Source: Deinococcales bacterium (GTDB lineage Bacteria > Deinococcota > Deinococci > Deinococcales > JAAFIG01). Taken from it: a stretch of DNA of 51,584 nt. Shown here in pieces: positions 32,312-46,470 of this stretch (its first letter is position 1; each line of letters opens with the position of its first letter). Position numbers and translations under genes: made by a program. The stretch is from the NCBI GenBank assembly GCA_031414595.1, contig JANNVX010000017.1, positions 1 to 51,584 of the forward strand. The letters run 5' to 3'. Below the pieces are notes generated by a model. The model was not told the origin of the DNA. It searched no databases and saw nothing but the letters and a program-made list of their open reading frames with translations.

Positions 32312-32758
32312 ATGAATCAAATCTCACGGACACAATTAAAATACCAAAGCATTTTCGGGGCAGATTTAACCATTGAATCGGTACTCTTGCAAAAACCAAT
32401 TCAAGCCGATGAGACCATTCAAGACATCATACCAAACCAACCAAAAGTCTGGATTTTAGCGCTACAAAAAATGCTTGGGGTCAATCAAAACATCGTTCTG
32501 GACTTAATTGGAATGCACCCTTCGCGCCTAAGCCGCAGCAAAGTCAATCGTTTTGAAATCATTGAACGGGCAGCCGAAGTGATTAAAATTTTTAGTCGTC
32601 TCGAGGATACACTAGGCACTCAAAAAGCCCAACACTGGTTAAATGCCCCACATCTACTGCTTGAGGGAAATACACCATTACAACTGATGCGTTCAATTGC
32701 TGGATTAAATAAAGTTACGGATTTAATTTTAGCACTTGAAGATGGTGTCTTTTTGTGA
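32312..32758 (+). CDS. Antitoxin Xre/MbcA/ParS
   Basis: C-terminal AQHWLNAPH..LEGNTPLQLM...LEDGVFL. Confidence 0.85.
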   Translation: MNQISRTQLKYQSIFGADLTIESVLLQKPIQADETIQDIIPNQPKVWILALQKMLGVNQNIVLDLIGMHPSRLSRSKVNRFEIIERAAEVIKIFSRLEDTLGTQKAQHWLNAPHLLLEGNTPLQLMRSIAGLNKVTDLILALEDGVFL

Positions 32759-33240
32759 TTTATGCTTACCGATTAACCAAAAGCCCGAATCAGTTCTATG
32801 CCTTTTCTGGCGAAGGCGCAAAGCGTTACCCCGGACGTTGGAATACGCTTGGCGTTCCAGTGGTTTACTTAGCCGAGCATTTAGCGGTTGCCACCCTCGA
32901 GATTTTAGTTCATTGGCATGAAGTCAGCGAAGTTTCTGGTTATGTCTACTATCAGGTGCAAATAGAACCTTTGGCAATAGAAACAGCCAACATGAACGAA
33001 GTTTCTAAAGATTGGGCAAACGCCACTGCCACCACATCCACCAAAGAATACGGTACAACATGGGCGCAACAATTGCGTTCACCTGTGCTGTGCGTCCCTA
33101 GTGCAGTTGTCCCAGAAGCGAAAAATTATATCCTCAATCCGCTCCACCCCGAATTACTGCAAGCCATTGAAATCAAAGCGCCTCAACCCTACCGACTAGA
33201 TGAGCGCCTAGAGCAACTCCTCAGCAATGCCATGCCTTAA
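32755..33240 (+). CDS. RES-domain toxin (NAD+ phosphorylase family)
   Basis: YRL, GEGA...GRWN, ATLEILVH, VPSAVVP..NYILNP.HP. Confidence 0.92.
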   Translation: MIYAYRLTKSPNQFYAFSGEGAKRYPGRWNTLGVPVVYLAEHLAVATLEILVHWHEVSEVSGYVYYQVQIEPLAIETANMNEVSKDWANATATTSTKEYGTTWAQQLRSPVLCVPSAVVPEAKNYILNPLHPELLQAIEIKAPQPYRLDERLEQLLSNAMP

Positions 33241-41358: not shown

Positions 41359-42108
41359 TTATTTTGCAGGTGGTGCATTCGGGTCTGTCGGTTCGGCGGG
41401 TTTCGGGTCGGTTGGTTTCGGGTCGGTTGGTTTCGGGTCTGCTGGCGTTGTGGGCTTTGGTTCGGCTGGTTTGGGGTCTTCAATCCCCGGTTGTTTGCCA
41501 AAATCATAATTGCTTCGTAAAATCTCAAAATCGGCATTGTCCACTTTGCCATCGCCGTTAAAATCCCCTTTGATTCCGCCTGCCGTTTGGCTTTTGCCAA
41601 ATTCTCTGGCAAAGACTTCAAAATCATCTATATTGACTTTGCCATCGGCGGTTAAATCGCCGTCAGGTGCGTATTGCTGACGCAACAAGGTAATATCGGC
41701 TTCGGTGATGCTGCGTTTACCATCCCAAATCGGCTCGAGCGGTAAACCAAGGCGAATCCCAGTCTCGAGCAGTAAAGCACTTTCAAGGTCAGTTGTGTCT
41801 GGATTAATGCTGACCACAATGCTTTCTTTGCCGTCGCTACCCGTCTCGAGAATTGTGCGGGTTGCAAGGTCTGGATTCAGTTCTGGTTCTGTGCCACCCC
41901 AACGAAATTGCAGTGCCGTCCCCACTTTCGGTGCATCTACTTTAAGCGTGGTACTTGGCACAGCTTGCCATTTAGCGAAGGCTTCACGCACCAACTTCTC
42001 GAAGTTCTCGGGAGCGCCATCTTTGACCACAGTAAAGGCGAAAGGTGCAGCTAAAACTGAGAATGAAAGTACGCAAAACAGAAGATAGAACTTCAAATTT
42101 TTCTTCAT
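41359..42108 (-). CDS. Secreted protein: degenerate matrixin-like domain + type I dockerin + Pro-rich tail
   Basis: GDLTADGKVNIDDF / GDFNGDGKVDNADF duplicated Ca-binding loops; LLLETGIRLGL in place of HExxH; DPKPT repeats. Confidence 0.75.
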   Translation of the reverse strand: MKKNLKFYLLFCVLSFSVLAAPFAFTVVKDGAPENFEKLVREAFAKWQAVPSTTLKVDAPKVGTALQFRWGGTEPELNPDLATRTILETGSDGKESIVVSINPDTTDLESALLLETGIRLGLPLEPIWDGKRSITEADITLLRQQYAPDGDLTADGKVNIDDFEVFAREFGKSQTAGGIKGDFNGDGKVDNADFEILRSNYDFGKQPGIEDPKPAEPKPTTPADPKPTDPKPTDPKPAEPTDPNAPPAK

Positions 42109-42590: not shown

Positions 42591-43348
42591 GGTTTGTCTC
42601 CTGTGGGTGGCGTGGTGGGAGAGGTTGGGGCTGGTGGTTTTGGTAACTCGAGGGCGGCTTTACTCAGTAAAACATTCTTAGCCCTGAGTTCAAAACCTAT
42701 TTTCCCCTCGAGTTTTAAGGGTTTTGCCAGTGCCAGCACCACATAAAAAACCGTGGCTGGGCGAACGCTGGGAATATCTTCGGATAGAGCAGCATCTATT
42801 CTTAAAACATTGCCCTCGAGACGAGAGAGCATTAAGGGTCTGCCCGCACTTGGCTCGAGGCGTTTTAGACTTGCTCCGCTTGGCAGGGAAATTGCGACCC
42901 GCATTGAACGGACATTCTTAGGGATTTTAAGGATGAAGGGCAGCCGTACTTCGTCGCGTACTTGGGTCGGAGGGATGCTCCACTCGAGACTCGGGGCGGG
43001 TAAGTTACGCACTTCTAAACGCAAATCTTGAAATTTATTGGCATTGCGTGAATCTATAATCTCGAGTGTGAATTCAAAAGTTTTTTGTTCATTGATTTTT
43101 AATTGCAATTTTGGTGTGCCTTGTAACTTTGAGCCTTGCAAAGAAATACCATCTGGTAATTTCCCCTTGGCAATTTTTAAGGTGTATGCCCGTTGTCCAC
43201 CAGTCACCCGTAATTCCTCGGAATATGATTCGTTGTTGTACGCCAAAGTCAAAGCCGTGTTGACCACGGTTATGGTATTGGCATCATTTTTGGCATCATT
43301 TGTGCCACAAGCCACAAGCAATGCCAAGAAGAAAAGAAGAAAACGCAT
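42587..43348 (-). CDS. Lipoprotein with putative Ig (He_PIG-like) domain and possible cohesin-like beta domain
   Basis: Lipobox LVAC, VTGG...Y...GKLPDGISL...LQGTP. Confidence 0.65.
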   Translation of the reverse strand: MRFLLFFLALLVACGTNDAKNDANTITVVNTALTLAYNNESYSEELRVTGGQRAYTLKIAKGKLPDGISLQGSKLQGTPKLQLKINEQKTFEFTLEIIDSRNANKFQDLRLEVRNLPAPSLEWSIPPTQVRDEVRLPFILKIPKNVRSMRVAISLPSGASLKRLEPSAGRPLMLSRLEGNVLRIDAALSEDIPSVRPATVFYVVLALAKPLKLEGKIGFELRAKNVLLSKAALELPKPPAPTSPTTPPTGDKP

Positions 43349-43423
43349 TCAAAGCAGTCTAAACAGGCTTTATGAGGACAACTCGAGACTTGGCTGAGTT
43401 GCTTGTCCTCGAGCAAAACAGTT

Positions 43424-43581
43424 TGGAAATTAGCGTTTGTTCTGTCAGTGAAAACTCCCGAAAATCGCAATTCTTTAGCGCTTAGCTTGGCAGTATTATC
43501 GCCTGTGCTGTCAGTGGACAAAGTATGTTATCGTTTGTCGTGTCAGTGACCATAATTCTATTAGCGTTTATACTGTCAGTG
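43424..43581 (+). repeat. Transposon end with five TnsB-type binding sites
   Basis: ATTAGCGTTT-N4-TGTCAGTG consensus at 43429, 43474 (weak), 43495, 43527, 43560. Confidence 0.85.
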
Positions 43582-43607
43582 ATTTTTTATGATATAATCA
43601 CACGATA

Positions 43608-44192
43608 ATGGCAACAGCGTACTCCAGTGGAATCGTAAGTCGCAAAGGGCATGTTCTATTAACCCGTCTTGGAGTAACTTTACCCTTTGAAAGTACCATC
43701 GAAGAAGCATTTGCGCGTATTCTGGATTTTGATGCCAGTGTTGTCGCTGTTCAACGAGCCGAACCAATCAATTGTTATTTGTCCGACGGACAATCTCATG
43801 CTTATACATCCGATTTTGTAATCACATTCGCCAACCAATCAAGAATTGTGGTGGACTGTAAGCCTCACAACTTACTTCAGGCAATTTTGCAAGAAGAACT
43901 TGAAAAATGGCAAAGTCGCAGCGACATCTACCGTCGCCAAGGTACACCATTATATATTGTCACAGACAGAGATTTGCCTGAATCAGCTAGAGAACAAGCC
44001 AGCGCTTTTGGACCATTCTATAATGTTGGCGTAGATGTCACAATAAGAGACAAAATCTATGAATTTCTAAAAAGCCGACCTGCCATTCCACTCAGTGTGC
44101 TGCGTGAGCAAGTTAAGGTGCTTGCCCAGCACCTTAACCTTGGAATGTCTCGAGGCTCACGAGGTCTCAACAGCATTTTGCTGGGGCGATGA
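43608..44192 (+). pseudogene. tnsA: TnsA-like endonuclease (N-terminal domain), probably truncated; frame ends inside CRISPR repeat 1
   Basis: FESTIE...LDFD..V....EPI....G..HAYTSDFVI...VVDCK matches TnsA_N PD-(D/E)xK pattern; extended -10 TGaTATAAT at 43590-43598. Confidence 0.8.
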
Positions 44193-44348
44193 TTGAAACA
44201 TTGCTGTATCAATCAGTGGAGGTAAAGATAGCCAGTCTCAACAGCATTTTGCTGGGGCGATGATGGAATTTTTGCGCTGGAAAGTGTATAATCGCCGTCT
44301 TAGGTTATTCTAAGTTGATTGAAACCGATTTACATAAGGAATTACAGA
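44164..44348 (+). CRISPR. Minimal CRISPR array: repeat, 35-nt spacer, degenerate repeat, then atypical repeat + 23-nt self-matching spacer
   Basis: GTCTCAACAGCATTTTGCTGGGGCGATGATTGAAAC (44164-44199); copy 44235-44270 with 3 mismatches at the 3' end; GTCTTAGGTTATTCTAAGTTGATTGAAAC (44297-44325). Confidence 0.8.
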
Positions 44349-44393
44349 GTGCTTAGCTTGAATTTCAAGGCTTTATGGATGTTACATAATAAT

Positions 44394-44542
44394 CACTGAC
44401 AGCATAAGCGATAAAAATTAGGTAAAATTCCATGTAAATCATGTCTATAGCAGCTTAAACCTACATTTTGACTTCCACTGACAGAATAAACGCTAATGAC
44501 AGCCTCAACGCTAACCACTGACAAAATCAACGCTAATTGCCA
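44394..44542 (-). repeat. Opposite transposon end with four TnsB-type sites
   Basis: CACTGACA-N4-AAACGCTAAT-like at 44394, 44476, 44497, 44516; terminal CA at 44541-44542. Confidence 0.85.
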
Positions 44543-44586
44543 CAGTTCGTACAAACGTCATCCAAAAAAACGGTAGACTATCTACC

Positions 44587-45210
44587 ATGTCTGTAATTCC
44601 ATACGTGATAGAACAAACAGGACGCGGTGAACGTGTCTACGACATCTACTCGAGACTTCTCAAAGACCGCATTATTTTTGTCGGCACACCCATCGAAAGC
44701 CAAATGGCGAACACGGTGGTTGCCCAATTGCTGCTGCTCGATTCGCAAAACCCCGAACGCGAGATTCAAATGTTTATCAATTGCCCCGGCGGAGAAGTTT
44801 ATGCTGGGCTTGCGATTTATGACACGATGCAGTTTGTCCGCGCTCCCATTCGCACCACTTGTGTTGGTATCGCCATGAGTATGGGCAGCGTTCTGCTGAT
44901 GGCTGGCGCAAAAGGCAGACGCACTGCCCTGCCCAATAGCCGAATTATGATTCATCAAGGCAGTGCTGGTTTTAGAGGCAATACCCCCGACCTCGAGGTT
45001 CAAGCTCGAGAAGTTCTGGCATTGCGCGACATCATGACTGGGTTATATGTCAAACACACTGGGCAATCTGGCGAAAAACTAATGCGCGACATGGAGCGCG
45101 ATAATTTTATGACCCCAAATACCGCCAAGGATTACGGCTTAATTGATGAAGTGGTCGAAATCATGCCCAAAAGCATTGGTGACGCACTCAGAGGCTCAGA
45201 TGAGCTTTAG
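44587..45210 (+). CDS. clpP: ATP-dependent Clp protease proteolytic subunit
   Basis: [39 protein letters not shown]. Confidence 0.97.
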
Positions 45211-45243
45211 GACTCGAGCGCTAAAAACTCAGGAGCATTGCTA

Positions 45244-46470
45244 ATGGCTCGTTGTTCTTTTTGTGGTAAAGCCGCCCATGAAGTTGAGCATTTAATCGAG
45301 TCGCCGCGTGGCAGTGCTTGGATTTGCAATGAATGTGTGGCTCAGGCTTCGGCAATGCTGACGGCGGCAAAACCAGCCACACCCGCTAAGTCCGAACCGT
45401 TTGTTCTCGAGCATGTACCAACCCCAAAAAGCATTAAACGCCACTTGGATGAATTTGTGATTGGGCAAGATGCAGCTAAAAAAGCGGTGGCAGTGGCGGT
45501 TTTTAATCATTATCAGCGCTTGCTACACCCAGAAGCCGAATTGCAAAAATCCAATATTTTACTGATTGGCTCGACTGGCACAGGTAAAACCCTGATTGCC
45601 GAAAGTGTTGCCAAAATGCTCGAAGTGCCATTTGCAATTGCCGATGCCACCACCCTGACCGAAGCCGGTTATGTCGGTGATGATGTCGAAAATGTGCTGG
45701 TGCGTTTACTTCACGCGGCGGGCATGGATGTTGGTAAAGCCGAGCGCGGTATTATTTATATAGACGAAATAGATAAGGTGGCTAGAAAGTCCGAATCGGC
45801 AAGCATCACCCGAGATGTTTCCGGCGAGGGTGTGCAACAAGCCTTACTTAAACTTCTCGAGGGAACGGTTGCCAATGTGCCACCACAAGGCGGACGTAAA
45901 CACCCTGGAGCAGAACTGGTGACAATCAACACCCAGAATATCCTCTTTATTTGCGGTGGCGCATTTGATGGCTTAGAAACGATTGCCAAAGCCCGCTTAA
46001 ACCAAAACATTGTTTCGTTCGCTAGGGTTGCCGCCAACGAAAACAGTGCGGTCGAGTTTATCCCCGAAGACCTGATTAAATTCGGCATGATTCCAGAGTT
46101 CGTTGGGCGTTTACCACTGGTTGTGGCGCTGAGAACCCTTGATGAAGCCGCCCTGATTTCGATTCTGACCGAGCCAAAAGGCGCACTGGTTAAGCAGTAC
46201 AAACAACTCTTTAAGTTGGCAGGAGTCAACCTCGAGTTTGCGGTGGAAACCCTCAAAGAAGTGGCAGCCAGAGCCATTGGGCGCGGTACTGGCGCACGCG
46301 GCTTGCGGGCTGTTCTCGAGCCAATGATGACCGAAATAATGTTTGAACTGCCCTCGGATAGTGTTACAAGCCTAAGCATTGAGCCTAAGCATTTAGATAC
46401 ACCGCTTGATTGTCTACCAACACAGCATCTGTTACAGCTTGAAGCCACTACACTTAAGAAAAGCGCTTAA
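45244..46470 (+). CDS. clpX: ATP-dependent Clp protease ATP-binding subunit
   Basis: CSFCGK..ICNEC Zn finger, [34 protein letters not shown]. Confidence 0.97.

Follow-up and report, generated by a model that had tools for sequence, protein, structure and literature searches.

The DNA analysed here (the window) is a whole contig stretch of 51,584 nt from the 4.49-Mb genome of a Deinococcales bacterium (G000), and coordinates given without a contig name refer to it. Upstream of clpP the window contains a Tn7-like element of 1,119 bp (43424-44542) that is flanked by a 5-bp duplication, CAGTT, and is very probably an internally deleted, non-autonomous remnant of a Tn7-like CRISPR-associated transposon (CAST) of type I-C. 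Between its two ends lie, in order, a truncated tnsA open reading frame (ORF; tnsA'), two 36-nt direct repeats separated by a 35-nt spacer, a divergent repeat and a 23-nt spacer. The features of the locus are as follows.

43419-43423, no strand: left target-site duplication CAGTT, the same letters as 44543-44547
43424-43581, plus strand: tnsA-proximal transposon end, with four TnsB-type repeats of 22 nt behind terminus TGGAAATTAGCG (repeat family D4, an inverted form of D3)
43429-43450, 43495-43516, 43527-43548 and 43560-43581, plus strand: TnsB-type repeats of the tnsA-proximal end
43608-44129, plus strand: tnsA' stub, codons 1-174 of a gene for a TnsA-TnsB fusion (Pfam Tn7_TnsA-like_N, E 1.9e-6)
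44130-44163, plus strand: leader remnant upstream of the array, with deletion junction 44129|44130 at its start
44164-44199, plus strand: CRISPR repeat 1, 36 nt, a hairpin ending in GATTGAAAC (fold -9.4 kcal/mol, z -2.1)
44200-44234, plus strand: array spacer, 35 nt, with no significant phage or plasmid match (best E 0.4 and 0.08, nothing usable)
44235-44262, plus strand: repeat 2, its 3' end clipped by a second small deletion (repeat family D6)
44287-44292, plus strand: perfect TATAAT hexamer 4 nt before the atypical repeat, read directly and kept in G130 and G131
44297-44325, plus strand: atypical (divergent) repeat, a distinct hairpin CTTAGG/TCTAAG with an 11-nt tail TTGATTGAAAC
44326-44348, plus strand: attachment-site spacer, 23 nt, an inverted imperfect image of clpP codons 2-9
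44393-44542, plus strand: CRISPR-proximal transposon end, with four TnsB-type repeats and terminus ...CGCTAATTGCCA (repeat family D3)
44393-44415, 44475-44497, 44493-44515 and 44515-44537, plus strand: TnsB-type repeats of the CRISPR-proximal end
44543-44547, no strand: right target-site duplication CAGTT, read from the sequence
44587-45210, plus strand: clpP, intact (Pfam CLP_protease, E 4e-76), found in 19/19 genomes of the family
44590-44612, minus strand: protospacer-like target at the start of clpP, position 1 at 68-70 bp from the last base of the element
45238-46470, plus strand: clpX, after clpP

Boundaries and internal deletions of the element

The ends are Tn7-like, with four TnsB-type repeats each and CAGTT on both sides. 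The inverted termini are TGGAAATTAGCG and, on the opposite strand, TGGCAATTAGCG, and the terminal inverted repeat reads TGG[A/C]AATTAGCG. In a sister species of the same genus (G129; clpP 95% identical) the site is empty and both flanks are joined without the element, differing from the window flanks by a single T in a TT run. The left terminus is fixed independently by a contig from another study (run X6), in which homology starts exactly at 43424 with another flank before it. Termini of the TGT/ACA type at 43422 and 44544 were ruled out, as they yield no target duplication; TGG/CCA termini are preferred because of the exact CAGTT duplication and the homology break at 43424. The element is a single copy in G000 and does not form the near-identical multicopy family of a miniature inverted-repeat transposable element.

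The tnsA' ORF (43608-44192, 194 aa) has one Pfam match of note, to the TnsA-like N-terminal nuclease domain. Its product is 42-44% identical to the N-termini of TnsAB fusions of 820-842 aa, and the alignment ends at residue 174; beyond this codon the residues are unrelated until the stop at 44192, the last 20 being translated from the array leader and repeat 1. It is the only transposition gene present, with no tnsB, tnsC, tniQ or cas gene among the 28 ORFs tested between 21195 and 46470; a full tnsAB-tnsC pair is found in the C14 relative described below.

Contigs from runs X5 and X6 match the element up to 44129 and then continue into a different, TnsAB-like coding sequence, where hand translation past 44129 gives ten residues that appear to fit the D-x-T-L block of the TnsAB alignment. 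A further contig from these runs matches from 44130 on and differs before. These loose ends at 44129 and 44130 place the main deletion junction at 44129|44130, and since the same left end is joined to undeleted tnsAB in X5 and X6, the deletion in the window copy is secondary. The extra sequence between repeat 2 and 44263 in X5, X6 and the related loci of G130 and G131 indicates that a second small deletion trimmed repeat 2.

The short spacer and its match to clpP

Repeat 1 aligns with the array repeats of four related loci (C14, G126, G138 and G130:C136). The atypical repeat shares its tail with the normal repeats but differs in the hairpin, and has no second site in the genome at up to 6 mismatches. 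The 23-nt spacer that follows it is identical in G130 and partly deleted in G131. TATAAT at 44287-44292 could possibly act as a separate guide promoter with a poor -35; a promoter scan listed none at the guide, the hexamer having been seen by eye only. No Rfam family matches 43300-44700 at E <= 1. The stretches after the short spacer in the window (44349-44380), G126 and C14 are all T-rich, and none of the three folds better than its shuffled versions (z -0.02 to +0.8); a structured 3' repeat or terminator after the spacer was dropped as a candidate because the folds are at shuffle level. A contig from an RNA library (run X20), which may be DNA, spans 44365-44515 only, with the guide outside it.

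An earlier note on this DNA had proposed that the spacer homes the element to clpP with GTT as the protospacer adjacent motif (PAM), and its coordinates for the atypical repeat (44297-44325), the spacer (44326-44348) and the clpP -10 hexamer TAGACT (44574-44579) are correct. GTT is indeed the reverse complement of 44612-44614, and the distances of 64 bp to the duplication and 69 bp to the transposon end agree with the duplication at 44543-44547 and the last base at 44542, both confirmed independently. The reverse complement of the spacer does align with 44590-44611 with four substitutions and one extra base, all four being synonymous changes at third codon positions (Pro, Tyr, Val and Ile codons), though only if a 1-nt gap is allowed. 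Without a gap the match is 16/23, including an exact 11-mer and a 15/17 stretch. When shuffled spacers were compared with the 200-nt flank on the correct strand, 37/20,000 reached 16/23, and 3/20,000 did so at 66-71 bp from the end, the distance seen in the relatives. With up to 2 mismatches allowed, clpP is the one other place in the 4.49-Mb genome that matches a 17-nt core of the spacer. The whole 23-mer, whose genome-wide uniqueness the earlier note had asked to see tested, matches 119 other sites ungapped at 16/23 or better, 17 of them at 17-18/23. The match is significant through its location, not through genome-wide uniqueness.

Three PAM candidates can be read on the minus strand according to the register, TTC (44611-44613), GTT (44612-44614) and TGT (44613-44615). 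TTC puts position 1 at 68 bp from the end; in G130 there is CTC at 68 bp, and in G131 TTC. In the GTT register G130, which has the identical spacer, reads GCT, so that YTC fits every copy and GTN does not, and the GTN PAM favoured earlier is not supported. Going by these alignments, the relevant PAM is probably TTC/CTC (YTC), one base off GTT. TTC is the canonical type I-C PAM. A TTC does occur at 68 bp in the window, but relative to it the spacer is 2 nt off register and the seed is mismatched. A spacer that is out of register and mismatched near the PAM implies that the present guide/target pair is probably not working, and the guide as it stands is probably inactive on the clpP of this host.

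The spacer may have come from another host, as had been proposed from the synonymous mismatches. The clpP allele of G243, from another family, agrees at 18/19 of the spacer bases tested and shares the spacer's codons for Pro, Tyr and Val; no allele accounts for the PAM-proximal bases without an insertion or deletion. A foreign clpP allele is a plausible, though unproven, source.

Intact relatives and the type I-C assignment

Out of 364 genomes of the phylum, four (G000, G126, G138 and G130) have strong matches to a TniQ profile (E <= 1.5e-73); the four are of one family, and in each of them the match adjoins Cas5c/Cas8c hits. tniQ stands with cas5c, cas8c and cas7c in C14, G126, G138 and G130:C136, and this set is missing from the window. 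The fourteen repeats from the arrays of the relatives and from the window align as a single family with compensatory changes that preserve pairing in the hairpin, and the short array of the window thus belongs to a repeat family served by type I-C genes. The intact relatives agree in their layout: tniQ-cas5c-cas8c-cas7c is followed by a short array, then by an atypical repeat and its spacer of 22-24 nt, and the matching target is 67-69 bp beyond the transposon end. The window element is assigned to type I-C by the likeness of its repeat, TnsA', end and layout to these relatives.

One relative lies in the same genome (contig C14:10220-59038). It is 48,819 bp long with CCTAT duplicated on both sides, and encodes TnsAB (837 aa), TnsC (TniB-type, 275 aa), ~40 kb of cargo, TniQ, Cas5c, Cas8c and Cas7c; cas7c is followed by two to three repeats, and these by an atypical repeat with its short spacer, the transposon end and a tRNA-Met gene. 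This is apparently an intact 48.8-kb type I-C CAST. The cargo includes defence-type GAP1/double-GTPase and SIR2 genes, an ORF of 3,646 aa and an Xre-type antitoxin gene. There is no cas3 on contig C14, and the only one above the family cut-off in G000 is on contig C18. There, at ~192000-201110, a canonical type I-C system (Cas3, Cas5c, Cas8c, Cas7c, Cas4, Cas1 and Cas2) runs to the contig end, and its two visible repeats end in GGATTGAAAC, a tail identical to that of the CAST repeats. With a resident Cas3-containing type I-C system that has the same repeat tail, a perfect clpP guide could be self-destructive, which may have favoured changes in the seed.

A second relative is in G126, of the same family and another genus. 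It encodes TniQ, a 950-aa Cas5c-Cas8c fusion and Cas7c. Three to four repeats come next, then an atypical repeat with a spacer of 24 nt, and then the TnsB-type repeats and the end, which faces the 3' end of an ABC permease gene. The fusion (G126:C161 836-3688) is the sole one of its kind among the matches listed.

The targets of the short spacers were analysed in these two relatives, and in both the spacer starts directly after GAAAC and matches the opposite strand. The C14 spacer matches tRNA-Met at 18/25, with PAM CTC and position 1 at 69 bp from the last base; mismatches within its first 22 positions are confined to 6, 12, 18 and 19. Type I Cascade leaves every sixth base unpaired, so that mismatches at 6, 12 and 18 would be tolerated, and this pattern appears to be the strongest sign that the short spacers are genuine guides. 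In G126 the spacer agrees with the permease 3' end at 17/24, with PAM TTC at 67 bp and mismatches at 3-6, 18, 21 and 24. In the register of the relatives the PAM is thus TTC in the window, G131 and G126 and CTC in G130 and C14.

Further copies may have existed at tRNA-Arg(CCT). In G130:C136 1-730 and G132:C79 1260-1650 there are pairs of this tRNA gene, and Tn7-type end repeats directly adjoin one tRNA of the pair at its 3' end; beyond the end G130 has a CAST-family array and cas8c-cas5c-tniQ, and G132 the end only. This tRNA may be a further attachment site with decayed copies.

The earlier note had taken the element for a relative of type V-K or type I-D CASTs. V-K CASTs use Cas12k with a trans-activating CRISPR RNA, recognise a GTN PAM and insert 60-66 bp away, and they are not known to carry tnsA. 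A remnant of a V-K-like or I-D-like CAST, reading GTT in the register GTT|C..., would agree with the GTT at 44612-44614 (reverse complement), which is present in both the window and G131. The report on the type I-D element McCAST (Hsieh and Peters, PMC9881144) gives an insertion distance of 75 +/- 6 bp, within which the 69-72 bp from GTT would fall, and likewise describes a TnsAB fusion with the end opposite the transposase genes beside the target. Such an origin is nevertheless most improbable: G130, with the identical spacer, has GCT and no GTN in this register; the window carries a tnsA stub, and V-K elements are not known to have tnsA; the intact relatives have TTC or CTC with the spacer directly after GAAAC; and their effector genes are of type I-C, the repeat family lying beside cas5c-cas8c-cas7c and not beside cas10d or cas12k, genes for which the genome was not searched.

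Several observations weigh against descent from a clpP-homing type I-C CAST. At the guide itself, the spacer overshoots the TTC register by 2 nt and the GTT register by 1 nt, the ungapped alignment gives TGT as the PAM with mismatches at positions 1-4, 6, 9 and 12, and the 119 other sites in the genome match the 23-mer equally well or better. No downstream repeat or significant hairpin marks the 3' end of a CRISPR RNA (crRNA), and the G126 guide is likewise mismatched at positions 3-6. The window element has no cas gene, and its link to type I-C rests on similarity to the relatives. An intact clpP-homing parent was assembled in none of the 364 genomes of the phylum. Scanning genome contigs with the repeat pattern gave 3 stretches, namely the remnants in G130 and G131 plus a lone hit of no relation; metagenome contigs scanned with the repeat pattern and the exact spacer gave 0 and 0, the scan for TniQ-profile loci gave G126 only, and a search for longer homologues gave 2 proteins (47% and 41% identity). 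Only the short contigs of runs X5 and X6 hint at an undeleted parent.

The weak ungapped match (16/23), the number of equal or better sites and the unpaired seed would also be expected if the resemblance to clpP were fortuitous and the element had landed there untargeted or under the direction of a protein. This is very unlikely in view of the 3/20,000 shuffles reaching 16/23 at the family distance, the same arrangement in two other elements (at tRNA-Met and the permease gene, 67-69 bp), and the reuse of the clpP site in 3 species; moreover, TniQ of the relatives is short (319-336 aa) and no selector of TnsD size was seen in the guide modules. Guide-directed homing is supported, as judged from sequence comparison.

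Occupation of the clpP site and implications for type I-C homing

Of the 19 clpP loci in the family, 17 were compared, those of G139 and G141 being cut short, and the region upstream of clpP is occupied in 3/17. The remnants in G130 and G131 are at the same spot as in the window, each with other internal deletions; they retain only the portion with the array, guide and end, and their left boundaries differ. Three differently decayed copies hint that occupying the clpP site is costly. The proposal that the 5' end of clpP is an attachment site marked by a CAST guide is supported by the same layout and distance in the intact relatives, the empty site in G129 and the remnants in two further species. 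As the earlier note had also recognised, the insertion left the clpP ORF and its -10 intact: it is 44 bp before the ATG, and TAGACT (44574-44579) remains in place.

The segment comprising guide and end is 272/280 identical (97.1%) between G000 and G130, whereas identity between their clpP genes is 84.6% over the whole gene and 60% at third codon positions. The two loci differ in the 6-7 nt at the junction, yet each has 44 nt to the ATG. On these alignments, neutral vertical descent cannot account for a 97.1% identical segment beside so diverged a clpP. The simplest reading would be separate recent insertions of one element lineage at the clpP site, although the segment may instead have been transferred by recombination. 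In G130:C259, about 60-110 nt before the first CRISPR repeat, there is a second end-like terminus (...CGCTAAATTCCA) in the orientation of the clpP-proximal end, and the sequence after it resembles the flank on the clpP side; an earlier insertion, or a tandem one, may have left this trace.

The high identity of these modules also bears on whether the window element is a living non-autonomous satellite, a 'mini-CAST' with both ends and its own guide that is moved in trans by a type I-C CAST like that on C14. Such a protein-less element would keep a residual array, make a promoter-driven short crRNA, borrow Cascade-TniQ-TnsABC from resident type I-C CASTs and re-home to clpP across species, and if real would explain how 97% identical modules lie 68 bp from YTC where clpP differs at 40% of silent sites. 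Both ends have four TnsB-type repeats, the two copies of the target duplication are identical, the genome also contains an intact type I-C CAST whose repeats and ends are related, and the remnants of two species are 97% identical. However, G000 has one copy only, the left boundaries in G130 and G131 differ and these are thus not copies of one mini-element, the left end in X5 and X6 is joined to undeleted tnsAB and the deletion is thus secondary, TnsA' is only 44% identical to the C14 TnsAB and the TnsB-type repeats differ, and the seed of the guide is mismatched. A satellite of this kind is therefore unlikely, and its re-homing across species by a borrowed machinery equally doubtful; the window copy is probably inert.

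The element is better described as the remnant of a larger type I-C CAST. Its anatomy, the target duplication, the empty site, the gene content of the relatives and the shared geometry were read directly from the DNA. By analogy, the parent would have had the order end-tnsAB-tnsC-cargo-tniQ-cas5c-cas8c-cas7c-short array-atypical repeat/short spacer-end. A type I-C Cascade without Cas3, joined by TniQ and carrying the short atypical crRNA, would have bound the first codons of clpP beside a YTC PAM, and TnsC and TnsAB would have integrated the element at about 68 bp from there, its CRISPR-proximal end toward the target. The insertion point, 44 bp before the ATG, would have spared the gene and its -10. 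A later deletion (44129|44130) would then have removed everything from tnsA codon 175 up to the array leader, and a second small one would have clipped repeat 2. Production of the crRNA, binding by Cascade and RNA-guided insertion are inferred steps.

The element contains 1 CTCGAG against 5.2 expected at the host rate (P = 0.03), and this scarcity suggests a foreign origin. CTCGAG is an abundant palindrome in this genome, with 23,235 copies in G000 (5.2 per kb), seven times the next palindromic hexamer; the window contains 241, where shuffles predict 6.3, and in the C14 CAST the density is half that of the host. GGGCCC, TGCGCA and CGATCG are nearly absent (0, 2 and 3 copies). Elsewhere in the window, 32312-33240 contains an Xre/MbcA/ParS-type antitoxin gene followed, with a 4-nt overlap, by a RES-domain toxin gene, and a 15-nt periodic repeat at 41363-41478 forms the 3' end of a minus-strand ORF (41359-42108, dockerin-type domain), where it codes for a low-complexity C-terminal tail.

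Type I-C CASTs have been described from database mining. The Rybarski preprint (10.1101/2021.08.16.456562), whose systems may overlap with those considered here, reports nine type I-C CASTs from metagenome mining and found no array, self-targeting spacer or attachment site for them. A later preprint states that type I-C CASTs lack recognisable arrays, and a 2024 review (PMC11656645) gives them one line. Literature searches returned no functional study or RNA-guided transposition assay of type I-C CASTs, and nothing relevant for CAST, clpP and homing together. As in the Rybarski preprint, the elements described here are Tn7-like with TniQ and Cas5, Cas7 and Cas8c and without Cas3 or adaptation genes. 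In contrast to that work, TniQ is beside cas5c, at the far end from the fused TnsAB, instead of beside TnsABC; there are arrays of 2-4 repeats and an atypical repeat whose spacer is 22-24 nt long; attachment is at tRNA-Met, a permease 3' end and the clpP 5' end; and G126 has a Cas5c-Cas8c fusion.

The arrangement is similar to homing in I-F3 and V-K as outlined in the review (PMC11656645), with a guide outside or at the end of the array, a divergent repeat and a conserved site outside one end, and the homing spacer is shorter than the array spacers, as in I-F3c and I-B4 according to 10.1101/2021.08.16.456562. Unlike I-F3 and V-K, the effector would be of type I-C, with a crRNA processed by Cas5c without Cas6, a YTC PAM and a spacing of about 68 bp measured from the PAM-proximal base; the spacer has no repeat after it, and the site targeted is the start of a protease coding sequence instead of a tRNA, ffs, glmS or a gene 3' end. 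McCAST, as described in its report (PMC9881144), is similar in its TnsAB fusion, the transposase-opposite end toward the target, the 5-bp duplication and the distance (75 +/- 6 bp), and non-TGT/ACA ends are predicted there for some of its relatives, the ends here being TGG/CCA; it differs in having a Cas10d-type Cascade, a GTN PAM and tRNA-Leu homing reported at 29 +/- 1 bp after the tRNA.

Previous accounts of type I-C CASTs, all from database mining, describe them as without arrays, guides or known attachment sites. The locus and its relatives suggest that type I-C homing proceeds by a short atypical crRNA and a YTC PAM, with insertion about 68 bp away and the CRISPR-proximal end facing the target. 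The apparently intact C14 element and the version with fused Cas5c-Cas8c in G126 could be used for reconstitution, and the small number of proteins that such a system would need makes it interesting for programmable DNA insertion. As an attachment site the clpP 5' end would be of a new kind, lying where a conserved gene begins and not where it ends.

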